From the NCBI GenBank assembly GCA_963756875.1, contig CAVWPA010000003.1:192001-256000 (forward strand): a DNA stretch of 64,000 nucleotides. Reading direction: 5' to 3'. Each line of letters opens with the position of its first letter. The stretch's first letter is position 1. The translations under genes and the position numbers were made by a program. This document shows positions 2,409 to 17,616 of this stretch, in pieces. This DNA is from an uncultured Verrucomicrobiae bacterium (GTDB lineage: Bacteria; Verrucomicrobiota; Verrucomicrobiia; Chthoniobacterales; UBA10450). The notes under the pieces were generated by a model, which had not been told where the DNA came from, searched no databases, and saw only the letters and a list, made by a program, of their open reading frames with translations.

Positions 2409-3023
2409 ATGCACTCGCTGCTTCTGGCCACTCGCAATCCAAATAAGACGCGAGAATTTCGAGAGTTACTGGGCCCCGAATTCGACGTGCGCGATCTCAG
2501 CGCGTTTGCCGACGCCGTACTTCTGGAGGAAGCAGGGAGCACATTTTCCGAGAACGCGATTTGCAAGGCGCTGGCCGTATCGCGCGATCCGCATCTTCTC
2601 GTGGCGGCCGACGATTCTGGCCTGGAAGTCGATTCGTTAAGCGGCGCGCCGGGAATTTACTCCGCCCGGTACGCAGGCAAAGACGCGACGGACGAACAAA
2701 ATACCGGCAAGTTGCTCGACGAACTGGCGCGCCGAAACGTGCCCGCGGACCGGCGCAGCGCGCGGTTTCGTTGCGTGATTGCCCTGGCGCGCGGTGGGCA
2801 ATTGATTGGCACATTCGAGGGTGTTGTCGAAGGAATGATTGTCGATCCGTCGCGTGGACGCAATGGTTTCGGTTACGATCCGGTTTTTCAACCAATCGGC
2901 TTCGATCAGACCTTCGGAGAAATGGAACCGGGGTTAAAAAACAGAATCAGCCACCGCGCGAAAGCGATCGCCGCGCTGCGTGAAGCTTTGTGCACAGGAA
3001 GAGCTCCTGGGGATCCATTTTAA
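2409..3023 (+). CDS. rdgB: Non-canonical purine NTP pyrophosphatase (RdgB/HAM1)
   Basis: [36 protein letters not shown] motifs. Confidence 0.95.
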
Positions 3024-3925: not shown

Positions 3926-4543
3926 TTAAAAGGAAGCGCCCGTCATGGTGTATGTGATTGGTACCTTAACTTTGGGCGCGACTTGACCAGGCCTGAATCT
4001 CCATCGTCGAAATGTGCTTGTGGTGGCTTCGTCCAGGATCGGGCTGCCCGTGCTTTGCGCCATTGACGCGCTCGTCACGTTGCCGCTGGACGTGTCGACC
4101 GTTAGAACACAGACCCCGCTGCCGGTGACGTGGCGGCTGCGCGCTTCGTACGGATAGGGCGGCTTGGGCGAATAAACCGCCGAGACTCTGGCGCTATTCA
4201 TCGACATTTGACGGGGCGCCCTGATCGGCGCGGCTTTCGCTTGGACCTGGGGCCGCGGTGGCGGCGATTCCTCGACGAACTCCGGCCTGACATCGGGCGG
4301 AGGCGGGGGTGGTGGAAGCGGGATATCTTCCGGTGGAGGCGTCGGCGCCTCCGTTGGCGCCTCAAGCGTAGCCACCACTTCTGCGGTTGGGATCTTACTA
4401 AGATCGATTGGCGGAGGCGCGTAATTGATTCCAGCGATCACGACCGAAACGAAATGGATTCCCACTGCGCCGCCGAGGGCCGCCCAGACATGCCATTTCG
4501 GCGGAGGTTTGTAGAGCAACGGCTTGGCCATAACCTGTTTCAT
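3926..4543 (-). CDS. tonB: Energy transducer TonB
   Basis: N-terminal TM helix with His, Pro-rich linker, C-terminal PxYPxxA..G..STGSPILD..WRFRP. Confidence 0.9.
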   Translation of the reverse strand: MKQVMAKPLLYKPPPKWHVWAALGGAVGIHFVSVVIAGINYAPPPIDLSKIPTAEVVATLEAPTEAPTPPPEDIPLPPPPPPPDVRPEFVEESPPPRPQVQAKAAPIRAPRQMSMNSARVSAVYSPKPPYPYEARSRHVTGSGVCVLTVDTSSGNVTSASMAQSTGSPILDEATTSTFRRWRFRPGQVAPKVKVPITYTMTGASF

Positions 4544-4989: not shown

Positions 4990-6027
4990 TTAAATTGAAG
5001 CGCCTTTCCCAGAGGCTGGTGCTTTTGCGATCTCCATCTCGCGCGCTGCGGTTTGTCCTCCCAGCATCACCTCCAGGTTTGTCGCCGCTGTCTGTAATTC
5101 GAACTCTAAGTTAGACACCCGGGAAGTGAAAAAGTTAAATGGGATCAACGCGAAAATCGCAATGCCGAGACCGCACGCGGTAGCAATTAACGCCTCGGCA
5201 ATACCACCGGTGACCGCTGTCACGGCCAACTCTTCATTACCGAGGAAGCTGAAGGACCGAATCAAACCGGTGATCGTTCCCAACAAGCCGAGCAGAGGGG
5301 CCAGTGTGACCAGCGTGTCCATGACCACAAGAAAACGTCCCGCGCGCTTGATCTCGATACCTGCCGCGACCTGGAGCGCCCCTTGCAGTGAAGCGTGCTG
5401 GTGATTGAGGCCATTCCACATCATACGCAACACCGGATCTCGCGAATCCCTCGAGAGCCGTGAAGCTTCCGCCACATCGCCCATTTCAACCGCGGTGAAG
5501 ACTTTTTCGATCCGCTTCGGATCACGCCGAAACCAGCGCCCACCCCACCAGAAGATTCGTTCGATCACGACCGTCAGCGCGACGATCGATACAATCAGGA
5601 TGGGCCACATGATTGGGCCGCCCTTGTGAAACTTGTCGATAAGCCAGTTGCTACTGAAGACTCCGCCCGTTTCAGCAGGCGCTGCGGTCGGACTTGCGCT
5701 CGCCGCCGGGCTCAAGGTCGCGGTTACGCTGGCGCCAGGAGCGGTCGCACCTGGCGACATTCCCGGAACTGCGGGTGACATGCCGGCGGCTTCAGGCGAC
5801 ATCCCCGGAGCCGCGGGTGACATGCCGGCGGCAGGTGACATCCCCGGAGCTGCGGGTGACATGCCGGCGGCGGGTGATGCGACGGGCGCGCCTGGTTGCG
5901 CTGGCGCACCCGGTTGCGCCTGAGCGGCCGGCGCATTTGCAGACGGAGGTGGCGGCGCAGCCGGAGGCTGTTGCGCGACCGCAGTCGCCACGATCAAAGA
6001 GACACAGAGAGTAAGCAATGTTTTCAT
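4990..6027 (-). CDS. exbB: MotA/TolQ/ExbB proton channel with N-terminal signal peptide and low-complexity repeat extension
   Basis: GGPIMWPIL, APLLGLLGTITGLI, GIAEALIATACGL; start chosen at MKTLLTL (6027). Confidence 0.92.
   Translation of the reverse strand: MKTLLTLCVSLIVATAVAQQPPAAPPPPSANAPAAQAQPGAPAQPGAPVASPAAGMSPAAPGMSPAAGMSPAAPGMSPEAAGMSPAVPGMSPGATAPGASVTATLSPAASASPTAAPAETGGVFSSNWLIDKFHKGGPIMWPILIVSIVALTVVIERIFWWGGRWFRRDPKRIEKVFTAVEMGDVAEASRLSRDSRDPVLRMMWNGLNHQHASLQGALQVAAGIEIKRAGRFLVVMDTLVTLAPLLGLLGTITGLIRSFSFLGNEELAVTAVTGGIAEALIATACGLGIAIFALIPFNFFTSRVSNLEFELQTAATNLEVMLGGQTAAREMEIAKAPASGKGASI
5750..5880. repeat. Coding tandem repeat (about 18-21 bp units) encoding (GMSPAA[P]) x7 in ExbB
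   Basis: Repeated GGTGACATGCCGGCGGC / GACATCCCCGGAGC units. Confidence 0.85.
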
Positions 6028-6240
6028 ATTAACGACTTGGATTATTTTACCTGCTCGGTAGTGAGATTCCTTATCCCAAATCAATTAGCGAGAAGTCGAG
6101 GAAACTTTTCACTTTTTTTTATAATACTTCATTTGCATGTAAATTCGAATTATTCACCCGGAATGGACGTAGGCAAGACGATGTAATTGGTCGGGCCACA
6201 CAAATCCCCAAGACGGCCGCGCATCGTTATCCGCGCGGCT

Positions 6241-6996
6241 TCAGCGCACTTTGTTCCGTAATGGCGGCCAATCGCCGATCCTCGCTTCCAATTGGTCGCC
6301 GGGGCGGATCGGTCCCACGCCTGAGGGTGTCCCGCTTAATATAAGATCGCCGGGACGGAGCGTCATCGACTGGCTGGCGAAAGAAACGATGTCAGCCACC
6401 GGGTAAATCATATTGCTCGTCCGCGCTTGCTGTCGCACTTCGCCATTTTGTCGAAGCTCAATCGGTAGATTGCTTGCATCGACGTCGGCATAAACGAACG
6501 GCCCGACCGGCGTGTACGTATCGAACGACTTGCAACGGCCAAATTGCTTTTCCGATTTCTGTAAATCCCGATCGCTGACGTCGAGACCAACGGTGTAACC
6601 GAAAACGAATTCGGGCGCGCGCGCCGCGGAAACATTTTTTGCGGTGGCGCCGATGACCACAGCCAGTTCGACTTCGAAGTCGGTTTGATGCTTCGGAAAT
6701 GCGATCTTAATCTCGCCACCGTGCGGCAGAAGTGAGCTCGGCGCCTTGAACCAGATTAGCGGCGTTCCGATCACGACGCGCTTCATCTCCGCAATGTGGT
6801 CGGCGTAATTCAATCCTACCGCGATCAATTTTGAGGGCGCCACAGGAAGCCCGATCTTCACATCGCCAATTTTCCGCACTTCTCCGGTCGGCTGTACGTC
6901 GATCCAGTACGGCCGGGCAAGAACGTGAACATCGTCACCACGAACTTCACCGTAGAAAAAATCGCCGCCTGATTCGAAGCCGCCGAACGTTCTCAT
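6241..6996 (-). CDS. Fumarylacetoacetate hydrolase family protein
   Basis: SKLIAVGLNYADH, DFEVELAVVIG, DVSDRDLQ, KSFDT, GDLILSGTPSGVG; start at MRTFGG. Confidence 0.92.
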   Translation of the reverse strand: MRTFGGFESGGDFFYGEVRGDDVHVLARPYWIDVQPTGEVRKIGDVKIGLPVAPSKLIAVGLNYADHIAEMKRVVIGTPLIWFKAPSSLLPHGGEIKIAFPKHQTDFEVELAVVIGATAKNVSAARAPEFVFGYTVGLDVSDRDLQKSEKQFGRCKSFDTYTPVGPFVYADVDASNLPIELRQNGEVRQQARTSNMIYPVADIVSFASQSMTLRPGDLILSGTPSGVGPIRPGDQLEARIGDWPPLRNKVR

Positions 6997-7022
6997 AAAT
7001 CCAATAACGGGTCTCGATTGTA

Positions 7023-7110
7023 CCCGCGAATCACGCGAATCAACACCAATAGCAAAGCCAATTTGTGATGGCTGAAATTTTATTCGCGTCCATTCGTGTG
7101 ATTCGCGGGC
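7023..7110. repeat. Intergenic inverted repeat (CGCGAATCACGCGAAT family)
   Basis: CCCGCGAATCACGCGAAT ... ATTCGTGTGATTCGCGGG; related half copies near 27402-27428 and 50700-50726. Confidence 0.7.
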
Positions 7111-7120
7111 CGCTCCCAAT

Positions 7121-7885
7121 TCACTTCGGTACGATGACGACAAAATCGCGCACGCTTTTTTGTTCTCGAATAGAAAAGGCGGTTCCGTCCTCGCGCTTGA
7201 ACCAAAACCCGCTCGACGAGCCGCCATCGAGATTTAAGGCGCGCTGAATCTTGAAGTCGCTCGCAGGCGGCGTAACCAGAATTTTGGCGAGGTCCTCCAG
7301 CGTCACGTCGGAGCAAAAGCCAAGAGCGGCGCGGTCGCCGCTCCCGACCGCGGCAAAAGTCCTCCGCGCCGCGCGCGAGTCGTTCAAACCCCGAACGGGC
7401 TGACCCCGTTCCACGACCATCGGCCCACACTGCACCGCCGCGCTGATTCTTTTTGAGCGTGAAAATTCGCTCGCCCGCACAATTTGAATCTTTCCCGGCG
7501 ACCCGGCCAAAACCCCCGACAGCAAGCGCGCCCGCTTCAGCGGCGCAATTGTTTTCCCATCGACAATCAACAAGCCAATTGGACCGTAGTCCGGATCGAA
7601 ATAAGCGCCGTTTACGCCGGCCAGGCAGTTTTCCCGTTGCATTGCCTGATTCAGGCTGAGACGCGGTTCAGTGGGCTGATCGACAACACGGAGGCGAAGG
7701 GATTTCGTTGCGAAGAGCGCAAGCTCGATGGAAGCGCGCTCGCCGCTCTCGGAATTCTCCATTACCACATAGCGATGCTCCAGCGCCCGCACCGGCGATC
7801 GCTCGGTCTGCGTGGAGATTGTCTTCCAGTCCGCGCGCGCCGAGGTCGCGGCAATGAGAAGGAAAATTGTCGCGATGATCTGCAT
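7121..7885 (-). CDS. Secreted phosphodiester glycosidase (NAGPA/DUF2233-like) family protein
   Basis: Signal peptide MQIIATIFLLIAATSARA; GVNGAYF, QCGPMVV, ALNLDGGSSS. Confidence 0.85.
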   Translation of the reverse strand: MQIIATIFLLIAATSARADWKTISTQTERSPVRALEHRYVVMENSESGERASIELALFATKSLRLRVVDQPTEPRLSLNQAMQRENCLAGVNGAYFDPDYGPIGLLIVDGKTIAPLKRARLLSGVLAGSPGKIQIVRASEFSRSKRISAAVQCGPMVVERGQPVRGLNDSRAARRTFAAVGSGDRAALGFCSDVTLEDLAKILVTPPASDFKIQRALNLDGGSSSGFWFKREDGTAFSIREQKSVRDFVVIVPK

Positions 7886-7944
7886 GGGTCGTTGTCCCCG
7901 CTTACTCTGAAGAAGGCCGGCTTCTCGGTCGAACGGACTATCGA

Positions 7945-9972
7945 TTACCGGGACTGGGTCTTCGCACTGTGCTTGTCGATCAAAGCTTGAAAGCGCGGAT
8001 CGCTTCGTAACGGGTCCCAAACCGGATTCACTTTAAGACTTGCCACGGTGACGTTGCTTGGCCGGCTCAACAGTCCGTCGAGAATCTCGATGGCCTGAGC
8101 GGTATCACCGAGAGCGGTATGCACTTCGGCGACGCCCTGTGTGATCTCGGGTCCCCCAAAGGCGTCCTTGCTTTCGGGGAGCAGTTCGGTGGCGCGCTGC
8201 GCCGCCTCCAGCGCGGCATCTTTTTCGCCGAGATATGCCAGCACTTTAGCAAGCTGAATCTCGGCGTCCGCAGCATCGGGGTTTTGCTTTAATTGCTGCT
8301 CGACCGCGCTCTTTGCCTTTAAGAAAGCCTCGCGCGAACCGGCGTCGTCATGGAGCGCTTTTCGGGCAAAGCCGATAAGATAATATTTGGTGGACAGACC
8401 CCCGGGAAAAGCCATGACCTGATCGTCCGGCAGGCTCTCCACCTTTTGCAATCCCTCCTTGTATTTGCGCTCCAGGAGATAAACATTCGCCCGGCCACCG
8501 GCGATCTTGAGCTTCTGCTCGTCACTCAGCACTGGGATCTTCTTCACCACCTCAAATCCTTGCTCAGCGACGCTCAAATCGCCTTTCTCCGCGACGGCCA
8601 GCTGGGATTTGATCTCCCAAAGTCCCACGCCGTTTGGATTCACCTTGAGCGCGCGATCGATCGTCTTGTTGGCCGCGTCGAATTGCCGCTGCATCTGATA
8701 GTTAAAAGCGAGATTCTGCAGCGGCCAGCTGTCTTTGGGATTCAAACTGGCCGCCTTCTCCAGATTGGCAGTCGATTCCGCCCATTTGCCCTGCCGGCGT
8801 TGGATCGCTCCGATGGCAAGATACGCGCCGGACTCGTTAGGCAGACCGCGCTGCGCGATTTCGAATTCCTTCAGGGCTGCATCGTAATCGTTGTCGCCGT
8901 AGTAATAAGAGAATCCCATCGCCAGGTGCGCCTCCGGCAGATCGGGCTGCAATTGCAGCGCCTGCTCGGCTAGCTTGCGAGCCTTTTCCTTGCGCTCGGG
9001 AACGGGGTCGATCGCGTGGAAAATCCAACTTTCCAATTGCGAGTAGCCCGCGATGGCCAGCGCAAATTTAGGGTCCAACTCGATGGCGCGCGCATAGAGC
9101 TCGCCGCTCTGTTTCAGTTTCGCGGGGTCCTCCATGGAGGTGGTAGAGAGATTGTGGGCCTGGACAAAAGCGAAATATGCTTCGCCGTTCTGGGTCGGTT
9201 TGCGCTCCATTTCTGCCTTCTCGCTGGGCGAAAGCTTTGCCTGCAGTTCGTTGGCGATTTCCTGGGCCAGCTTCGTCTGGATGGCGAAAACATCGGTCAA
9301 ATCACCGTCGTAATCGTTGGCCCAAAGATGTTCGTCTGTGGTGGCATCGATAAGCTGCACGTTGACGCGAACCTTGTTCCCCTCGCGACGCACGCTGCCC
9401 TCGAGAATGGTCGACACCCCGAGAGCCTTGCCGATGTCGCGAACATTCGGCAAATGACCCCGATACGACATCACCGATGTGCGGGAAATTACCTTGAGGT
9501 CGCCGATCTTCGACAGGTTTGTAAGAATGTCGTCCTGGATGCCGTCGGCAAAATAGGCGTTCTCTTTGTTGTCGCTCAAGTTTTCAAACGGAAGCACGGC
9601 GATCGATTTGTCGATCCTGTGTGCGGCCGCGCGCGGCAAAACAAAAAATCCCGCTGCTACGGAAATGGCAATACCGGCCGTCGCCAGCAAAACGATGTTG
9701 CGGCGGCGATGTCCGACCGGAGCGGGCAGCGACTCCATTTTCGACGTCCGCTCGATGCCGCTCGGAGTGATATCAAAAATCCAGGCGAGAACGAGGGCGA
9801 GCGGAAAACCGATCAATAAGAGCACGATGACCACCCGGATCACCGAGTTTGAAATGTCGAAAACAGGAAGAACCTGCGCCAGCCCTTGTGCCAGAGCCCA
9901 GCTCGCAACCGCATACGCGATCGCGACCCGGTAGACTTTGCGACGTTTCAATTCTTGGAAGAAGCCGGTCAT
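7945..9972 (-). CDS. Membrane-anchored TolB-N-like/TPR protein (adenylate-cyclase-associated architecture, no cyclase domain)
   Basis: FFQELKRRKVYR N-terminus with 3 TM helices, SIAVLPFENLS..YFADGIQDDIL, TPR repeats, WDPLRSDPRF C-terminus. Confidence 0.88.
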   Translation of the reverse strand: MTGFFQELKRRKVYRVAIAYAVASWALAQGLAQVLPVFDISNSVIRVVIVLLLIGFPLALVLAWIFDITPSGIERTSKMESLPAPVGHRRRNIVLLATAGIAISVAAGFFVLPRAAAHRIDKSIAVLPFENLSDNKENAYFADGIQDDILTNLSKIGDLKVISRTSVMSYRGHLPNVRDIGKALGVSTILEGSVRREGNKVRVNVQLIDATTDEHLWANDYDGDLTDVFAIQTKLAQEIANELQAKLSPSEKAEMERKPTQNGEAYFAFVQAHNLSTTSMEDPAKLKQSGELYARAIELDPKFALAIAGYSQLESWIFHAIDPVPERKEKARKLAEQALQLQPDLPEAHLAMGFSYYYGDNDYDAALKEFEIAQRGLPNESGAYLAIGAIQRRQGKWAESTANLEKAASLNPKDSWPLQNLAFNYQMQRQFDAANKTIDRALKVNPNGVGLWEIKSQLAVAEKGDLSVAEQGFEVVKKIPVLSDEQKLKIAGGRANVYLLERKYKEGLQKVESLPDDQVMAFPGGLSTKYYLIGFARKALHDDAGSREAFLKAKSAVEQQLKQNPDAADAEIQLAKVLAYLGEKDAALEAAQRATELLPESKDAFGGPEITQGVAEVHTALGDTAQAIEILDGLLSRPSNVTVASLKVNPVWDPLRSDPRFQALIDKHSAKTQSR

Positions 9973-10075
9973 ACCAAAAGATTTGGATTCGCTTCGCGCA
10001 TCAGGGGAAGTTCCTTCTCAATCAGACAAACGGCAAGACCGAGCTGTTGAAGGAATCTGTTAAGGGTCGCGATCG

Positions 10076-10133
10076 TTGACATCGTATCAGCGCTCCGAGT
10101 ATCGTCTGAATTGCCTACTCAAACGAAAAGGAG
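10076..10133 (+). promoter_or_regulatory. Sigma70-like promoter and RBS of the peptide/SagB cassette
   Basis: TTGACA (10076-10081), 18-bp spacer, TATCGT (10100-10105); AAGGAG at 10128-10133, 5 nt before the ATG. Confidence 0.6.
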
Positions 10134-10138
10134 CAACA

Positions 10139-10306
10139 ATGACTAAAAAGGAATCGGCAAAAGCGAAACGCGATATGCAGCTGCGGAAAAAAAAGGCGGC
10201 GGCCCTGGTCAGAAGTCTCAAAAAGACCGAACAAAAATTGGAATTGGATTTAAAGAAGCTCAAGGAAGGTCTCTCCAGCCCGGTACTTTACTATCACCGC
10301 TTGTGA
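10139..10306 (+). CDS. 55-aa Lys-rich peptide, candidate RiPP precursor
   Basis: Strong SD; MTKKESAKAKRDMQLRKKKAAALVRSLKKTEQKLELDLKKLKEGLSSPVLYYHRL; the stop overlaps the next ATG (TGATG). Confidence 0.7.
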   Translation: MTKKESAKAKRDMQLRKKKAAALVRSLKKTEQKLELDLKKLKEGLSSPVLYYHRL

Positions 10307-11442
10307 TGCGGGAAGGGGCGGGCCCATTTCGACGGGCTAAAAGTTTGTCGGTCTGCTGGCGGGACGGTCGACTTCTTTTTCATAATTACGCCGCGCAATC
10401 GACCATTTCTGCCAGGCCCGTCACCTGCGAAGTTCTGAATTTCTTCAGCCACTGGCGCACTGTCAGAGCAGCTGTCACCCATTTTTCTGCTTACTCGAAG
10501 CAAAGCGTGGTGGCCGCTCTCGCCGACTTACTAAAGCGGGGGCTTCTCGTTGCGAAAGGTTCCCCGGAGGCGGCGCGCGACTCTTTGGTTGCAAGGGAGT
10601 GGTCCTCTTGGTTGCCCGAAGGGAGTTTTCATTTCTCGACGAAGGACGCGCCCTATGTGCGTGGCGATCGGAGCAACGCTCGTTTGGCGCCTTTTCTTTT
10701 GAAGACGCCGCAGCCTGCACATTTTAAGGTGATCAGCGAGGCGAGGAGAGTTGCGCTTCCACCGCGTATTTTTCCGGACTGCGAATTCATTCGAGTTCTG
10801 ATGGCGAGACGGACCCATCGACGGTTCTCATCCAAACCGCTTACCCTTGAAAGCGTATCTCAACTGCTCTCACTGGTTTGGGGCTTCACCGGTTATCTGC
10901 ACTCTCCTCTCTTTGGAAAGTTACCGGCCAAGACCAGCCCGTCGGGTGGCGCGCGGCATCCCGGGGAGGTGTACCTGATGGCCCTGCGTGTCCAAGGCCT
11001 GAGACCCGGTCTGTATCATTATCACCCCGCTCACCATCGCCTTGAGAGGATCCATTCCCACGCGACGCGTGGCGAAGCGTCACGCTACTGCGCGTACCAG
11101 GACTACGTAAAAAACGCCGGTGCTCTGTTCTTAATGACGGCCGTGTTTGGACGCACCATGTGGAAATACAGGCATGCTCGCGCCTACCGCGTCGTGTTGC
11201 TCGAAGCTGGCCACCTATGCCAGACATTTTGTCTGGCCGCGACTTGGCTGGGGCTCGCGCCGTTCTGCACCGCCGCGCTCAAGGACACGTTGATCGAGAA
11301 AGATCTCGGAATCGACGGAGTCCGCGAATCGATACTTTACGTAGCTGGCGTTGGCCTGCCCTCTACTTCGGAGCGAGTGAAGCGACAATTTTCTCGAACC
11401 GGGGATCACCGCGCAATGAATCCCAATAGGGGTGAAGCTTGA
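10306..11442 (+). CDS. SagB/ThcOx-family FMN-dependent dehydrogenase (nitroreductase fold) with N-terminal RRE-like winged-helix domain
   Basis: RRTHRRFS, TSPSGGARHP, GLYHY, WKY (Lys-Tyr motif), EAGHLCQTFCLAATWLGL; N-terminal beta-hairpins plus helices ending ALADLLKRGLL. Confidence 0.9.
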   Translation: MREGAGPFRRAKSLSVCWRDGRLLFHNYAAQSTISARPVTCEVLNFFSHWRTVRAAVTHFSAYSKQSVVAALADLLKRGLLVAKGSPEAARDSLVAREWSSWLPEGSFHFSTKDAPYVRGDRSNARLAPFLLKTPQPAHFKVISEARRVALPPRIFPDCEFIRVLMARRTHRRFSSKPLTLESVSQLLSLVWGFTGYLHSPLFGKLPAKTSPSGGARHPGEVYLMALRVQGLRPGLYHYHPAHHRLERIHSHATRGEASRYCAYQDYVKNAGALFLMTAVFGRTMWKYRHARAYRVVLLEAGHLCQTFCLAATWLGLAPFCTAALKDTLIEKDLGIDGVRESILYVAGVGLPSTSERVKRQFSRTGDHRAMNPNRGEA

Positions 11443-13810
11443 GAAGACCGTAGCTAAGCTCGTTAGGGACGCGCTCTACCTCGGCAATCTGTTCGATAGC
11501 CAGGTCTTTTTCGCCGGTCCAGGCGTAAATCTGCGCCAGGTCGACAGCGAGTGCGGCACCGTCGACCGCATCCTTTGATATTGGGAGTAGTTCCCAAGCA
11601 CGTCGGCCCTCACGCAGCGCATCTTCCTTGCGTCCGAGTCCAGCGTCGATCCTGCCCAATAGACTTACCGCCGGCGCAAAATCGGGCTGGTCGTCGATCT
11701 CTTTCTGCACCTCTTTGCGGGCGGCAGCAAAAGCAGCGCGGGCGTTAGCAATGTCCCCTTGGCAATAAGCAAACACTCCCTCCCAGTAAGCCACAGGAAT
11801 TCTGGCACCGTAGGGAGCCAAGCCACCGGGCGGGTAATCTTTAAACACACGGCTGGCAGCAGCCGCGCTTCGTTCACAAAGGCCGTAGTCTGGGTAGTCG
11901 ATATCTCTCGCGACGGCTGGATTTTCAATAATCAAAGCAGCCAGCGTCTTCTTATACGGTTCAATATCCGCCCGCCAATGGAGAGCAACCAGCGCTCGAT
12001 TGACACGGGTCAGCGGATCGCCAGGGGCAATATTCAGTACGCGGTCCCAAGTTTGCGCCTCATCAGCGTAGCGACGCTCCGAATGGTAGGTCAGTGCCAG
12101 TTGTTGAAGGATAAACCGATTGCGCGGGTCCAGCTCGAGGGCGTGCTCCAGATTGCGGGTGGCTTCCGTCCAATCGCCTTCACGACGATCGATCAGGCCG
12201 GTATATAGAAAAACCTCTGCGTTGTTCGGCAGCGTATGCCGCGCAGTTGCCAGATCAGCGCGCGCGCGCTGATAGTCGCGGAAGCCTTGGTAGTAATAAA
12301 TTCCGAGTGCGAGGTTTACTTCACCCCCTTGGGGTTGCAGCTGCGAGGCAGTTTGTAGCGCCGCCTTGGCCAGATCAAGACGTGACTTGGTATGGTCCTC
12401 GTGCGTATAGATGGCACCCTGCGTTCGCGACAGCAGGCACCAAGCCAAAAGAAAACGCGGGTCGCTCTGAACAGCCTCGTTAAGCAGGCGCGCAGCCTCA
12501 AACAAGTTCTCCCTGCCGTGCATTGGATCTGAAACGTTTCCCCAGTGCGCCTTAGCCTCCTGGTATAGCCTGAACGCGATGAGGTTGGTAGTTGGGGGCT
12601 TCTCGATCGCGGCCTTTTCGCTCGGAGAGATTTTTGCCTGGAGTTGGTCGGCGATCGCTTTCGCAATCTCGCTCTGGATCTTAAAGACGTCCGCCAGTTC
12701 GCGATCATACCCCTGCGCCCAGATATGCGTGTCTGTTCGGGCGTCGATCAACTGTGCGGTAACGCGGATCCGGTTCCCCTCACGCTGCACGCTCCCTTCC
12801 AACACATGGGCTACCCCGAGCTGCTTGGCAATCTCGCGCACATTGCGCTCCGCGCCGCCTTTGTACTGCATTACGCTGGTCCGGCTAATGACCTTTAGGT
12901 CAGCGATTTTCGCCAGGTCCATGAGAATTTCGTCCTGGACACCTTCAGTGAAGAATGCGTTTTCCGGTTGTGCGCTTAGGTTCTCGAAAGGAAGCACCGC
13001 GATGCTCTTTTCCGGAGCGATCACGCGAGCTGTTCGCCCTGAACGTCCGCGTTGGACGAAGATCCAAATGCTGGTCGCCAGCGCGATCGCCGAAAGAAAC
13101 ATGGTCAGCGCCAATAACGATTTTGACCAGCGTGGAGCCGCTGCCGACCGCATGAGACGCGCGTCGGCGTGCTTCCAGCGCTTGCCGCGACGGAATTTTT
13201 CCGGTGGCTGCGGATTACCCAGATCGCTCTTTGAAAAATTGAAGATGTGAAGCCTTAGTCCGTGCTTAACCTCGCACTCGCCAAGGTCGTGCAGATAGGG
13301 CCGCCAATGCCCGTATTGCGCCAAATCGTCGGCCACGTGCTTCGAGAGCAGAATGTGCCCGGCATCGCCGCATTCCATCACCCGCTGGGCGACATTTATG
13401 CCCGTTCCGGTAATGTTGGATCGGTCGTTCACATCGGTAACCTCATTCACCGGGCCGCTGTGAATTCCCATGCGCAACTGGATTTGAGGATGGCTGCGCA
13501 ATTCCTCGGCAATCTCTAGCGCACATTGCACCGGCTCCTCCGGACTATGGAAGAAAAGCAGCGCCATTCCATCGCCGGTAGGCAGACGAATCAGCTTTCG
13601 GCTGGCTTCAGCCCGCCGGAAACATTCGGTGTTTCGAACGATTTGATTAAGCTGCTGGAGCAGTTCGGCCTGTTCGTTGCCCAGCAGCTTGGAATAGCCG
13701 ACAACGTCCATTAACAAAATGTGCGCGATCTCGAATCCGAGATCCGGCTTCTGCCCAGCGGATATGTTTTGCTCGGGCACGGGCCTCCTTTGCAAGGCCG
13801 ATGATCTCAA
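11363..13810 (-). CDS. Class III adenylate/guanylate cyclase-like domain + TolB-N + TPR protein (start uncertain)
   Basis: ILLMDVVGYS, PTGDGMAL, LRMGIHSGPV, GINVAQRVM; SIAVLPFENLS; TPRs; WDSLRGDPRF. Confidence 0.88.
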   Translation of the reverse strand: MRSSALQRRPVPEQNISAGQKPDLGFEIAHILLMDVVGYSKLLGNEQAELLQQLNQIVRNTECFRRAEASRKLIRLPTGDGMALLFFHSPEEPVQCALEIAEELRSHPQIQLRMGIHSGPVNEVTDVNDRSNITGTGINVAQRVMECGDAGHILLSKHVADDLAQYGHWRPYLHDLGECEVKHGLRLHIFNFSKSDLGNPQPPEKFRRGKRWKHADARLMRSAAAPRWSKSLLALTMFLSAIALATSIWIFVQRGRSGRTARVIAPEKSIAVLPFENLSAQPENAFFTEGVQDEILMDLAKIADLKVISRTSVMQYKGGAERNVREIAKQLGVAHVLEGSVQREGNRIRVTAQLIDARTDTHIWAQGYDRELADVFKIQSEIAKAIADQLQAKISPSEKAAIEKPPTTNLIAFRLYQEAKAHWGNVSDPMHGRENLFEAARLLNEAVQSDPRFLLAWCLLSRTQGAIYTHEDHTKSRLDLAKAALQTASQLQPQGGEVNLALGIYYYQGFRDYQRARADLATARHTLPNNAEVFLYTGLIDRREGDWTEATRNLEHALELDPRNRFILQQLALTYHSERRYADEAQTWDRVLNIAPGDPLTRVNRALVALHWRADIEPYKKTLAALIIENPAVARDIDYPDYGLCERSAAAASRVFKDYPPGGLAPYGARIPVAYWEGVFAYCQGDIANARAAFAAARKEVQKEIDDQPDFAPAVSLLGRIDAGLGRKEDALREGRRAWELLPISKDAVDGAALAVDLAQIYAWTGEKDLAIEQIAEVERVPNELSYGLLKLHPYWDSLRGDPRFEKIVASLAPK

Positions 13811-13885: not shown

Positions 13886-14821
13886 CTACTTAACACCGGT
13901 GGCGAAGACTGTTTGAAAATGCGGGCTCTGTTTCTCCCGCGCCACCACGCTCACTTCGATCTCGTCAAACCCGGCCTTTTCCAAAAGTTCGTGCAGGATC
14001 ACTTCGCTAAAGCCGAGCCAGTGATCGGCATAGAGTTTTCGCGCCTTCTCGAAATTGTGGCTCAGCAGATCGAGCACAACGATGCGCCCCCCTTTTTTCA
14101 GAATGCGATGCGCCGACTCGATCGCGCGCTCCGGCTTGATGGCGTGATGCAACGCCTGGCTGAGAATGGCCAAATCAATACTGTTCTTCGCGATCGGCGG
14201 GGCCTCAATGTCGCCCAGCCGGTACTCGAGATTTTTCAACCCGTGCTGCTTTGCCAGCTTCGATCCGAACTCGACCATCTTCGGCGAGTTGTCGATGGCA
14301 ATGACTTTGCGCGCGCGTTTGGCGAGCAATTCGGAGAGCGTCCCTTCCCCGGCGCCCAGATCCGCCACCGTCAACGGCGGAAGCAAAGTAATGAGCGTGT
14401 GCGAAAGCGCTTTCCACGAGCGACCGGGGACGTAACTGCGTCCAAATCGGCCCGCCAGTTCGTCGAAATACTTTCGCGCCTTGTCCTGGCGTTTCCGTAA
14501 CGCAAGCTTCAATGCCGTGCGATCGTGCGCCGTTTCGGGAATTTCGCGCGCCAACGTTCGCAGCACTTCCTGCACGCGTCCGCGCGCCCCGTCGCGGCCG
14601 GCGGTTTTTGAGGCGCCGTAATAAACATTTTTGCCCGCCCGGCGATCTTCCACCACTCCGGCGCGCTTCAACTGGGCGAGATGACTGGAAATACGCGATT
14701 GCCCCATTTCCAGAATGTCCTGCAACTCCGCGACGGAAAGCTCCTCCTGTTCGAGCAACAGGAGAAGCCGCAGCCGTGTAGGATCGGCCAGGAGCCGGAG
14801 CAAATTAATCGTTGACGTCAT
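13886..14821 (-). CDS. sahR: ArsR/SmtB HTH fused to a SAM-methyltransferase-like domain (SahR-type regulator)
   Basis: LADPTRLRLL..SVAELQ..QSRISSHLAQLK; ADLGAGEG; divergent from metK-ahcY. Confidence 0.85.
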   Translation of the reverse strand: MTSTINLLRLLADPTRLRLLLLLEQEELSVAELQDILEMGQSRISSHLAQLKRAGVVEDRRAGKNVYYGASKTAGRDGARGRVQEVLRTLAREIPETAHDRTALKLALRKRQDKARKYFDELAGRFGRSYVPGRSWKALSHTLITLLPPLTVADLGAGEGTLSELLAKRARKVIAIDNSPKMVEFGSKLAKQHGLKNLEYRLGDIEAPPIAKNSIDLAILSQALHHAIKPERAIESAHRILKKGGRIVVLDLLSHNFEKARKLYADHWLGFSEVILHELLEKAGFDEIEVSVVAREKQSPHFQTVFATGVK

Positions 14822-14832
14822 GCAGCTGGACA

Positions 14833-14862
14833 ACGATATATCGACGTATCATGATTGGTCAA
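14833..14862 (-). promoter_or_regulatory. Putative sahR promoter overlapped by an imperfect palindrome (candidate operator)
   Basis: Minus strand TTGACC-18 bp-TATCGT; ATATCGACGTATCATGATTG at 14838-14857 lies in the spacer. Confidence 0.5.
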
Positions 14863-14979: not shown

Positions 14980-16158
14980 ATGTCCCGCCGTTACATCTTT
15001 TCCTCCGAGTCGGTCACCGAAGGTCATCCCGATAAAGTTTGCGACACCATCAGCGATTACGTACTCGATGCGTGCCTGGAGCAGGACCCGCTCAGCCGCG
15101 TCGCATGCGAGACGCTGGCAAAAGGCAATCTCGTCGTGCTCGCGGGCGAAATCACCAGCAATGCAAAATTTGACTTCGAGGAGCGCATCCGCGAAGCCGT
15201 GCGCAGCATCGGCTACGTAAACACCGATTGCATTTTTCACGCGGACACATGCCGCGTTGTTTGCGAAATCACGGAGCAATCCCGCGACATCAAACAGGGC
15301 GTCGATGAAGCCGCTGCAGAGGGGAAAAGCACTGCCGAACAGGGCGCCGGCGACCAGGGCCTGATGTTCGGCTTCGCGTGCAACGAAACGCCGGAGCTTA
15401 TGCCCGCGCCGATTTCCTTCGCGCACAAACTGGGGCGCGAATTGATGCGAATGCGCAAATCCGGCGAAATCCCGTGGCTGCGACCCGACGCCAAAACACA
15501 GGTCTCGATCGAGTATGACGGCTACAAACCGGTGCGCGCCTCTGCGGTCGTGGTTTCCACGCAACATGCGGCCGACGTAAAACAAAAGGAAATTCACGAG
15601 ACGCTCATCGAGTTGCTCATCAAGAAAGTGATGCCGCCCGAATGGCTCGACGAGAAGACGATCTACTTAATCAATCCGACCGGCCGCTTCGTTACCGGCG
15701 GCCCCGAAGGCGACGCTGGAATCACGGGACGCAAAATCATTGTGGATACGTACGGCGGAATGGGACGGCACGGGGGCGGCGCGTTTTCCGGAAAGGACCC
15801 CAGTAAAGTGGACCGCAGCGCGGCGTACATGGGCCGCTGGGTAGCGAAAAATGTGGTCGCTGCCGGCCTCGCCGACCGCTGCGAAGTGCAATTCGCCTAT
15901 GCCATCGGCCATCCCGATCCCGTCAGCGTGAGCATCGACACTTTCTGCACCGGCAAGGTTGACGACGAAAAAATCGAGCGCGCCGTCCGGGAAATCTTCA
16001 ATTTCAAACCGGCCGAAATCATCAAACAGCTCAACCTGCTCCGTCCGATTTATCGCAAGACCACCAACTACGGACACTTCGGCCGGATCGACGACCTCGA
16101 TGCCATCACGTGGGAAAAAACGGACAAGGCGGACGCAATCAGGAAGGCAGTGCAGTAA
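14980..16158 (+). CDS. metK: S-adenosylmethionine synthetase
   Basis: [44 protein letters not shown]. Confidence 0.98.
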
Positions 16159-16182: not shown

Positions 16183-17616
16183 ATGAGTACGACAACGACC
16201 GACTCGAAAACGAAACAAGATTTTAAAGTTCGCGACATCAATCTTGCGGACTTTGGACGAAAGGAAATTTCCATCGCGGAAAAGGAGATGCCCGGCCTGA
16301 TGGCCATCCGGGAGAAGTATGCACCGGAGAAACCGTTCGCCGGTGTCCGCATCACCGGTTCGCTCCACATGACGATCCAGACCGCCGTGTTGATCGAAAC
16401 ACTGGTCGATCTCGGCGCAAGCGTGCGCTGGGCCAGTTGCAACATTTTCTCGACCCAGGATCACGCCGCGGCGGCGATCGCGAAATCAGGCGTACCGGTT
16501 TTCGCGTGGAAAGGCGAATCGCTCGAAGAATATTGGTGGTGCACTTACCGGGCACTCTCGCATGCGGACGGCAAAGGACCGCAACTCATCGTCGATGACG
16601 GTGGCGACGCGACATTGCTCATCCACAAAGGGTACGAGATCGAAGAAGGCAGCGATTGGGCGAAAACGAAATCGGCGAACAGGGAAGAACAGGTCATCAA
16701 GGACCTGTTGCTCGAAATTCAGCGCGAAAATCCGTATCGCTGGCACGAAATCGTGAAGGGGTGGCGCGGTGTTTCCGAAGAAACAACCACCGGCGTGCAT
16801 CGTCTTTATAAGATGCACCTGGAAAACAAGCTGCTGGTTCCGGCGATCAATGTGAACGACTCGGTCACGAAGTCGAAGTTCGACAATCTTTACGGCTGCC
16901 GGCATTCGCTGGTCGATGGATTGAACCGCGCGCTCGACGTCATGATTGCCGGCAAGATCGCGGTGGTGTGCGGCTACGGCGACGTCGGCAAAGGTTGCGC
17001 GCAATCGCTGCGCGGCCAGGGGGCGCGCGTGGTCATTACCGAGATCGATCCGATCAACGCATTGCAAGCGGCGATGGAAGGCTACGAAGTCACGACCATT
17101 GAGGAAACACTCGGCCGAGGGGACATTTACATCAGCGCCACCGGCAACACCGACGTGATCACGTTCGATCACATGCAGCGGATGAAAGATCAGGCCATCG
17201 TTGCCAACATTGGCCACTTCGACAACGAGATCCAGGTGGATGCGCTCAGTTCCGCCAAGGGCGTAAAGCGCACCAACATCAAACCGCAGGTGGACAAGTA
17301 CACATTCCCGGATGGCCACGATATTTTTCTGCTCGCGGAAGGGCGTCTGGTAAATCTCGGCTGCGCCACCGGCCATCCGAGCTTCGTCATGTCGAACTCA
17401 TTTTCCAATCAGGTGCTCGCCCAGCTCGATCTTTGGAAGAATCGGGAGACGTACAAGCCCGGCGTTTACGTCCTTTCGAAGAAACTCGACGAAGAAGTTG
17501 CGCGCCTGCATCTGGGAAAAATCGGGGTCAAACTGAGCAAGCTCTCGCAAAAGCAGGCCGATTATCTCGGCGTGCCGGTCGAAGGCCCGTTCAAGTCGGA
17601 GCATTACCGCTATTAA
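16183..17616 (+). CDS. ahcY: Adenosylhomocysteinase
   Basis: [49 protein letters not shown]. Confidence 0.98.

Follow-up and report, generated by a model that had tools for sequence, protein, structure and literature searches.

SagB-type dehydrogenases are the textbook partners of YcaO proteins. ThcOx, for instance, oxidises thiazolines made by a YcaO heterocyclase, and according to work on McbC and BcerB, a Lys-Tyr pair is needed for azoline oxidation. The structure of ThcOx reportedly has, before the oxidase, two N-terminal domains resembling the RRE, i.e. the recognition element of peptides that are made on the ribosome and modified after translation (RiPPs). As for the cyclodipeptide oxidase AlbA, it acts directly on C-alpha/C-beta bonds, has no RRE and belongs with a different class of substrate, and the small gene of the albA-albB pair lies downstream. 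Finally, the dehydrogenase family TIGR04511 was defined together with TIGR04509 (an NHLP-related RiPP peptide) and TIGR04510 (a "putative peptide modification system cyclase"), in a three-gene system which is itself only predicted. Here we describe a divergent relative of this triad, found in a stretch of 64,000 nucleotides (hereafter the window) from an uncultured Verrucomicrobiae bacterium (assembly GCA_963756875.1, contig CAVWPA010000003.1, positions 192,001 to 256,000), in which the genes of a 55-aa peptide, of a SagB/ThcOx-type flavoenzyme and of a membrane protein lie side by side.

This trio is a real, conserved module and a new form of an only-predicted peptide-maturation system; the fold and motifs of the enzyme, the linkage of the genes and the absence of YcaO are what the analysis shows. 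According to our preferred reading, to which we assign a probability of roughly 0.55, the three genes form a module maturing a ribosomal peptide without YcaO. The features of the locus, where ORF stands for open reading frame and FMN for flavin mononucleotide, are as follows:

10076..10105, + strand: promoter-like TTGACA-18-TATCGT, 10 of 12 consensus positions matched
10127..10132, + strand: Shine-Dalgarno (SD) site AAGGAG, 6 nt 5' of the ATG at 10139, read from the sequence
10139..10306, + strand: small ORF of 55 aa, putative precursor peptide, with a Lys-rich N-terminus, a conserved amphipathic helix (KLELDLKKLKEGL) and the tail SSPVLYYHRL
10306..11442, + strand: enzyme gene, 378 aa, its 3' end overlapping the convergent neighbour by 80 nt
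10306..10560, + strand: RRE-like domain at the N-terminus of the enzyme, up to about residue 85 (AlphaFold models; VIA-align matches, Z 5.5-11.8)
10753..11364, + strand: SagB/ThcOx-type FMN dehydrogenase domain (nitroreductase fold), residues about 150-353 (PF00881, TIGR03605, Foldseek, PDB profile search)
11164..11169, + strand: Lys287-Tyr288 motif (AAA TAC), aligned with FWKY of ThcOx and FKYR of McbC
11363..13810, - strand: 815-aa membrane protein, convergent with the enzyme (Pfam, NCBIfam, transmembrane scan, comparison with a TIGR04510 protein)
7945..9972, - strand: 675-aa paralogue of the 815-aa protein, divergent from the peptide operon (Pfam, NCBIfam, transmembrane scan)

The promoter, the AAGGAG site, the Cys-free 55-aa peptide, the TGATG overlap and the 378-aa enzyme, from which an initial annotation had proposed a new RiPP system, are all present in the sequence. 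The TGA of the small ORF (10304-10306) and the ATG of the enzyme (10306) overlap by one base. The promoter-like site is weak evidence, since the single site found in 9800-11700 compares with a mean of 0.6 in shuffled sequence. A longer, 76-aa reading of the peptide from the TTG at 10076 was rejected, this TTG being the start of the -35 hexamer and the homologues beginning at the position of the ATG at 10139.

Concerning the TIGR04509/04510/04511 triad, the three-part layout is common to both systems. The best full-length NCBIfam match of the enzyme is TIGR04511 ("putative peptide maturation dehydrogenase"), with 185.1 bits; this falls short of the curated 240-bit cut-off and extends over profile positions 71-370 only, enzyme residues 1-64 (the RRE part) remaining unaligned, and true members score 454-548 bits. 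The triad was tested in 301 genomes sampled from the class of genome G012, two of which pass the TIGR04511 cut-off. In a gammaproteobacterial locus (L054), the true triad consists of adjacent genes scoring 998 bits (TIGR04510), 94.7 bits (TIGR04509) and 454 bits (TIGR04511), and in locus L053 a TIGR04510 gene (1111 bits) stands beside the dehydrogenase gene, with no TIGR04509-like ORF found between the two. True TIGR04510 proteins have, like the 815-aa protein of the window, one transmembrane helix after the cyclase head, and the window protein is collinear with that of L054 (26% identity over 417 residues, BLASTP E 2e-9). The dehydrogenase domains of the window and L054 are 34% identical (E 4e-34), whereas their N-terminal domains do not align. 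Against the TIGR04510 cut-off of 400 bits, the 815-aa and 675-aa proteins reach 37.2 and 45.8 bits, respectively; seven peptides of the window's family gave no match to TIGR04509 at E <= 0.5, and the two peptide families are unrelated (hhalign probability 0.4%). The window trio thus lies below all three curated cut-offs and, unlike the cyclase of TIGR04510, the heads of the membrane partners in its relatives are often Ser/Thr kinases or winged helices. From these sequence comparisons, the window module is best read as a sister of the triad in which both the peptide and the RRE are different. The initial claim of a new RiPP system has to be narrowed, the system being a divergent relative of an already predicted one. 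Full-text searches, with subscription journals outside their coverage, found no literature naming TIGR04509-04511, none joining Udaeobacter with RiPPs and, beyond a graspetide survey, none joining SagB, NHLP and cyclase.

ThcOx/CyaGox (PDB 5lq4, 8pz5) shares with the window enzyme an RRE-like domain fused to a SagB-type FMN domain and the KY motif. It is about 80-90 residues longer (chains of 458-465 vs. 378 aa) and 19-20% identical, and the window enzyme has a single N-terminal domain, matching ThcOx residues 108-212 only. With SagB, McbC and BcerB, azoline dehydrogenases of the clusters for thiazole/oxazole-modified microcins (TOMMs) or linear azole-containing peptides, the enzyme has in common the TIGR03605 domain, the KY motif and the flavin-binding arginines, but the window lacks both a YcaO partner and a Cys/Ser/Thr-rich core. 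With AlbA/AlbB, it shares the nitroreductase fold and a small overlapping partner gene.

A precedent for a role independent of YcaO is offered by the tiarins, or trifolitoxin-like peptides, as described in a preprint of December 2025 (bioRxiv 10.64898/2025.12.02.691738). There, TfxB and TfxC are RRE-fused SagB-type FMN dehydrogenases proposed to turn a conserved Gln into a fluorophore; the clusters are defined by the adjacent TfxB-TfxC pair together with this core Gln, the precursor gene lies immediately upstream behind a strong SD site, and YcaO is accessory and not universal, a YcaO-independent role being proposed (bioRxiv 10.64898/2025.12.02.691738). The RRE-fused dehydrogenase and the upstream precursor with its SD site are common to both systems, and a wholly new RRE-fused SagB type in no need of YcaO, as first supposed for the window, can no longer be claimed. 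Unlike the tiarin clusters, the window genome has one SagB-type place only and no adjacent dehydrogenase pair, the window's peptide family shows no conserved Gln column in two alignments, and the module includes neither an aminoacyl-tRNA synthetase nor an export pump.

The flavoenzyme and its N-terminal domain

The only Pfam family found on the enzyme is Nitroreductase (PF00881, residues 166-350, E 2.8e-17), next to a sub-threshold MarR_2 match at residues 63-91. The SagB family peptide dehydrogenase model TIGR03605 is passed with 120.6 bits for a cut-off of 78.4 (residues 180-350), and the nitroreductase domain first annotated is thus borne out by both models. An AlphaFold model of the enzyme built on 77 homologues has a mean predicted local distance difference test (pLDDT) score of 91.4. 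When searched against the PDB with Foldseek, it ranks ThcOx first (8pz5, 5lq4; E 1e-22, TMq 0.75, 372 alignment columns for the 378-residue model), followed by BmdC, the tandem SagB-like protein 3eo7 and McbC, and a profile search of PDB sequences agrees with this ranking. The best matches of the enzyme are therefore peptide or non-ribosomal peptide synthetase azoline oxidases (ThcOx, BmdC, McbC) and not enzymes of the NfsA/NfsB types.

The four motifs named in the initial annotation were located at residues 75 (LLKRGLL), 168 (RRTHRRFS), 212 (PSGGARHP) and 286 (WKY), the last of which (286-288) falls on FWKY of ThcOx and on FKYR of McbC in the alignment. R168, R172 and Y288 are invariant in all 77 homologues, in which the PSGGA(R)H motif is also kept, and at position 287 a Lys is found in 50 of them and an Arg in 24. 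In the window enzyme, the flavin-binding arginines and the Lys-Tyr motif are intact. As a minor point, its last 25 or so residues were modelled as disordered (pLDDT about 50).

Residues 1-97 were also modelled alone, on 27 sequences, with a pLDDT of 92.2. The model has strands at 8-10, 14-19, 22-27 and 32-35, then helices at 38-46, 53-59 and 65-77, i.e. the winged-helix topology of a three-stranded sheet followed by three helices, as in a PqqD-like RRE; both AlphaFold models (pLDDT 91-92) bear out the N-terminal strand/helix segment of about 85 aa described at the outset, and across the two the last strand was also assigned to 32-36 and the first helix to 39-46. A VIA-align search covered 48,161 representative chains. 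Of its top 23 matches, 15 are enzymes of RiPP or pyrroloquinoline quinone (PQQ) biosynthesis or their leader-binding domains: TigE (Z 11.8), MibB (11.4), TbtB (8.7), MccB (8.6), ThcOx 108-212 (8.5), MadB (8.4), NisB with the NisA leader (8.0), the PbtF RRE with peptide (7.5), BmdC (7.1), TbiB1 with leader (6.9), lasso B1 with leader (6.8), the sactisynthase 5wgg (6.6), LynD (6.3), an McbBCD chain (6.0) and PqqD (5.5). For NisB, PbtF, TbiB1, lasso B1 and PqqD, the leader-binding role is named in the title of the PDB entry; in the other matches, we take the aligned part to be the RRE. Since a Z below 8 can mirror a common arrangement, and plain RREs obtain middling values, the assignment rests on one functional class crowding the list. 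Sequence searches with the 27 N-terminal domains gave only weak winged-helix matches among the families listed; models built on sequence often miss RREs, which are too divergent for them. The first 85 or so residues are thus predicted, from the structural models, to fold as an RRE, with leader-binding domains of RiPP enzymes as their best structural matches, in line with the RRE identity suggested initially.

The peptide family, its hosts and the YcaO survey

A pattern scan of one genome per species yielded 45 related loci, of which 30 were analysed (L002-L022, L024-L028, L030, L031, L033 and L039). Two loci in which a contig end cuts the enzyme and the upstream DNA is missing (L023, L029) were left out, as were those with 27-37% identity, mostly in the dehydrogenase domain only and mostly from actinomycetes (L032, L034-L038, L040-L046). 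L004 and L005 are near-identical loci of one metagenome-assembled genome (MAG). At a larger scale, the enzyme family comprises 11,598 cluster representatives at E <= 0.001 and 657 at E <= 1e-30; 4,470 of 8,000 scored candidates passed in a word-indexed search, and the best 119 matches listed after the window's own are 65-73% identical and mostly lie on short metagenome contigs. Named hosts are Candidatus Udaeobacter, other Chthoniobacterales, Acidobacteriota, Gemmatimonadales, Limnocylindrales, Vicinamibacterales and one gammaproteobacterial MAG. A sample of 120 other genomes from the order of the window yielded the enzyme in two, both of the same family (2 of 11 there), and this patchy distribution fits an accessory function. 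The sequencing runs listed for the source are DNA runs of one soil study, with no RNA run among them.

Among the 30 loci, 23 have a clear relative of the small ORF (52-87 aa, ATG start) upstream of the enzyme and in the same orientation, with a stop 18-104 nt before the enzyme start or overlapping it. A shorter Lys-rich ORF of 38-43 aa is found in three others (L016, L019, L027) and a doubtful one of 79 aa in L039, bringing the total to 27 of 30 loci in several phyla; two more (L020, L022) hold a recognisable but interrupted copy, and in L030 (Hoeflea), where the identity of the enzyme is down to 35%, no small upstream ORF was found. A purine-rich, SD-like stretch precedes the ORF in most related loci, L018, L021 and L039 being the exceptions. 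The small ORF is no mere accident of reading frame, for it is met again, ribosome-binding site included, upstream of homologues in other phyla. When 18 of the peptides were combined into a profile, 63 small proteins were retrieved from a collection of 5.8 billion, none of them with a functional name. The window peptide itself, encoded by a single-copy gene in its own genome, matched no Pfam or NCBIfam family and gave no usable match in an ESM Atlas look-up.

The window peptide reads MTKKES...KLELDLKKLKEGLSSPVLYYHRL and ends in GLSSPVLYYHRL, with no Cys and only two Ser in the tail. In the 39 peptide sequences read, most members of the main Udaeobacter clade end in D-[PNH]-H-H-(H)-L, other endings being DPHRL, DPHTAD and DNHKAQ; the C-terminus of this clade is not hypervariable, and many of its peptides have a Cys near the N-terminus. 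The window peptide belongs to a Lys-rich subgroup with variable, aromatic tails (e.g. PFQPPPPYGPSCRLRK, MPFGMPFGMMPHGDR, EEWYFGI, MFFIP and EEHSWFKCD), and those of the loci labelled Limnocylindrales and Acidobacteriota are longer, with Cys in the tail. The expectation of a conserved upstream ORF with an aromatic C-terminus is therefore supported for the ORF only, the aromatic tail of the window being an outlier and not a feature of the family. The most widely conserved element is an amphipathic L-x-L-x-L-x-x-[VL]-K (L38 being 90% conserved in one alignment). Pairwise ratios of non-synonymous to synonymous changes (dN/dS) are 0.3-1.5 for the peptide, noisy at about 55 codons, vs. 0.12-0.25 for the enzyme, and between L003 and L005 the enzymes are 91% identical where the peptides show a pN of 0.52. 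A complex prediction with two enzyme copies and the peptide (score 0.00, mark 0.32) is uninformative either way on binding.

Several side observations concern this intergenic region. Most Udaeobacter loci (L002-L013, L017) have a conserved spacer of about 45 nt from the peptide stop to the enzyme ATG (TTTTGATGCTGTCC..GCGTCAAC..AGATG), which folds as a 9-pair hairpin with compensatory changes at four pairs and may tune the enzyme:peptide translation ratio. The window has no such spacer (10304-10306), its two genes being coupled by TGATG instead. As MAFFT aligned the last codons of the window peptide against the spacer, the window tail may derive from former spacer sequence. In L020 (5700-7200) and L022 (5650-7154), the peptide frame is broken by a stop or by frameshifts, and L022 moreover has its enzyme divided among three ORFs; these loci hold either pseudogenes or assembly indel errors.

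A search for YcaO (PF02624) in the assembly to which the window belongs (2.69 Mb, three contigs, 87.6% complete) gave no match, so that the absence first noticed in the window extends to the whole assembly. The survey was widened to 27 further genomes reached through the loci, 23 with close enzyme homologues and four actinomycete controls with distant SagB matches. No YcaO was found in 22 of the 23, and in the remaining one (G010) it lies on another contig, of 10 kb, where it has no SagB-like neighbour; in these genomes the family as a rule does not co-occur with YcaO, as had been anticipated. All four controls contain YcaO, in one case (G026) inside the span of the locus itself (L040). The incompleteness of MAGs tempers single negatives, not the overall pattern. 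As a side observation, the YcaO contig of G010 and its enzyme locus share a 1.2-kb paralogous stretch, 80% identical (L055:8917-10086 vs. L016:8990-10156).

The membrane partner

The initial annotation overlooked a conserved membrane partner with tetratricopeptide repeats (TPRs). In the window, the 815-aa protein consists of a head of the Guanylate_cyc family (26.7 bits for a cut-off of 21.9), a single membrane-spanning helix at about 232-250 and, past it, a TolB_N-like stretch, TPRs and a "TPR end-of-group" domain. Its 675-aa paralogue has no head domain and is made of two hydrophobic segments, a TolB_N-like stretch, TPRs and the TPR end domain. About eight genes with a TPR end domain (10 matches) occur in the 2.69 Mb of the genome, and it is therefore unlikely to be by chance that two of them flank the pair; a second partner copy also flanks it in L007, L008, L010 and L013.

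With residues 255-815 of this protein as the query, tblastn detected an adjacent relative in 26 of the 30 loci, and NCBIfam added L021 and L039, so that a TolB_N/TPR membrane protein adjoins the pair in 28. Of the other two, L030 has none and the DNA of L024 stops 73 nt past the enzyme. The partner is convergent with the enzyme in the Verrucomicrobia and Gemmatimonadales loci and lies upstream on the same strand in L018, L025-L027, L031, L033 and L039. In seven convergent loci (L002, L005, L012, L013, L014, L017 and L021), the 3' overlap of the two genes, 80 nt in the window (11363-11442), measures about 74-83 nt. Concerning the flanks of the same-strand loci, the kinase-TPR gene of L025, L026 and L033 has an EamA-family transporter gene immediately upstream, and a DUF2911 gene, followed in both cases by PNPase, lies downstream of the enzyme in L026 and L033 only; these recurrences may be plain synteny, other synteny also being common to these loci.

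The inner heads were scanned in 21 neighbour proteins: 13 have a Ser/Thr kinase, that of L018 a CadC-like winged helix (Trans_reg_C), and seven have neither. Of these seven, the partners of L009, L012, L013 and L017 align with the cyclase-headed protein of the window over nearly its full length. At the same time, residues 265-815 of the window protein share 65-68% identity with the partners of L014 and L015, which have a kinase head, and the enzymes of these two loci are 63-66% identical to that of the window. Domain swapping thus appears within one lineage, where outer domains 63-68% identical carry a kinase head in L014, L015 and L005 and a cyclase in the window. Because the orthologous outer domain carries interchangeable inner heads, the partner would be a receptor-like sensor or regulator of the module and not a modifying enzyme. 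The identity of the outer domain to that of the window is 63-70% in most Verrucomicrobia loci, 50% in L011 and 37% in L016. A pherotype-like co-diversification of peptide and receptor was considered and is not supported, since the outer domain tracks enzyme identity while the peptides diverge far faster.

Readings of the module and neighbouring genes

In the preferred reading of YcaO-free peptide maturation, the 55-aa ORF would encode a fast-evolving small peptide, translationally coupled to the enzyme gene; the RRE would dock the conserved helical part of this peptide, and the flavin domain would remove hydrogens from one or more residues of its His/aromatic C-terminal tail. The product could be an alpha,beta-dehydro residue, or an oxidised intermediate that cyclises or cross-links, and the adjacent single-pass membrane protein would sense or regulate the module. 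The chemistry put forward at the outset, alpha,beta-dehydrogenation or cross-linking, is purely conjectural. A large family with the catalytic motif and a leader-docking domain in YcaO-free genomes points to unexplored flavin chemistry on ribosomal peptides, in an enzyme type otherwise known for its YcaO partners. It also bears on Ca. Udaeobacter, among the most abundant of soil lineages, of whose specialised metabolism little is known because it has no cultured representative. Moreover, the predicted RiPP "cyclase" family TIGR04510 may really be a receptor. The peptide/enzyme pair is small (55 + 378 aa) and hence directly amenable to co-expression.

Several points weigh against this reading. 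The known SagB-type enzymes oxidise YcaO-made azolines; we know of no chemistry for the nitroreductase fold on an unactivated linear peptide and, to our knowledge, the only unactivated peptides that this fold has been shown to oxidise directly are diketopiperazines, by AlbA. PqqD is not among the Pfam families listed (the first 25 of 27) for the 27 N-terminal domains at E <= 1, and no exporter or leader protease is shared in the flanks of the non-Verrucomicrobia loci. As for the peptide, the start Met is the sole invariant residue across 27 aligned sequences, purifying selection on it appears weak from the sequence comparisons and, lacking the D-x-H-H-L end and the N-terminal Cys of many relatives, the window peptide may be a degenerate copy. 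Even for TfxB and TfxC, direct action is only proposed (bioRxiv 10.64898/2025.12.02.691738).

A more elaborate possibility, which we put forward tentatively and consider rather unlikely, is a self-contained peptide signalling circuit of abundant soil bacteria such as Ca. Udaeobacter, in which the RRE-guided flavoenzyme directly oxidises His or aromatic residues and the TolB_N/TPR receptor senses the product. The matured peptide, or a small molecule cut from the conserved D-x-H-H-L end, would then be the ligand of the outer domain, and the inner head of the receptor (cyclase, kinase or DNA-binding domain) would set the output. Such a circuit would imply a new chemistry for the SagB-type fold, without azoline intermediate, and a reinterpretation of the TIGR04510 "peptide modification system cyclase" as a receptor, tying peptide maturation to signal transduction.

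The main rival explanation, unlikely in our view, takes the small protein not for a substrate but for a subunit or regulator of the flavoenzyme, in the manner of AlbB with AlbA; the enzyme would then act on something else, such as a small molecule or another peptide. Translational coupling would suit such stoichiometric partners, the AlbAB filament is found, weakly, among the fold matches of the enzyme in Foldseek (rank 38, E 3.3e-6), and the fixed D-[PNH]-H-H-L end and frequent N-terminal Cys of the main Udaeobacter clade resemble a functional or metal-binding site and not a hypervariable core. However, leader-peptide-binding RREs are the best structural matches of the N-terminal domain, the peptide outpaces the enzyme (as between L003 and L005) in a way seldom seen in an obligate subunit, and the position of the small gene is upstream in the window vs. 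downstream in albA-albB.

It is very unlikely that the enzyme is an ordinary nitroreductase or flavin reductase of xenobiotic or redox metabolism, with the upstream ORF and the neighbours being incidental. The Pfam match is indeed to the general family, and many nitroreductase structures match the C-terminal domain, but the SagB-specific model is passed with azoline oxidases as the best matches, and different phyla have kept the RRE domain, the upstream ORF and the membrane partner, in gene orders that vary. Most improbable of all is a decayed TOMM cluster that lost its YcaO, with the small ORF as a chance frame: the atypical window peptide and the interrupted frames of L020 and L022 would fit decay, but the enzyme is under purifying selection with invariant catalytic and flavin-binding residues, 657 representatives were found at E <= 1e-30, absence of YcaO is the rule (22 of 23 genomes), and the start, ribosome site and length class of the ORF are kept in most loci.

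The remaining annotated genes on the 5' side of the locus, a housekeeping context, are as follows:

3-2414, - strand: leucyl-tRNA synthetase
2409-3023: Ham1 NTP pyrophosphatase
3926-4543, - strand: TonB C-terminal domain protein
4990-6084, - strand: ExbB/TolQ-like protein with a long Pro/Ala-rich N-terminus
6241-7227, - strand: fumarylacetoacetate hydrolase family protein
7121-8020, - strand: NAGPA phosphodiester glycosidase

On the other side, a 315-aa protein (13886-14833, - strand) fuses an ArsR/SmtB-type helix-turn-helix to a class I S-adenosylmethionine-dependent methyltransferase. Its gene stands just upstream of metK (14980-16158) and of an S-adenosylhomocysteine hydrolase gene (16183-17616), and this proximity suggests a possible regulator of the methyl cycle.

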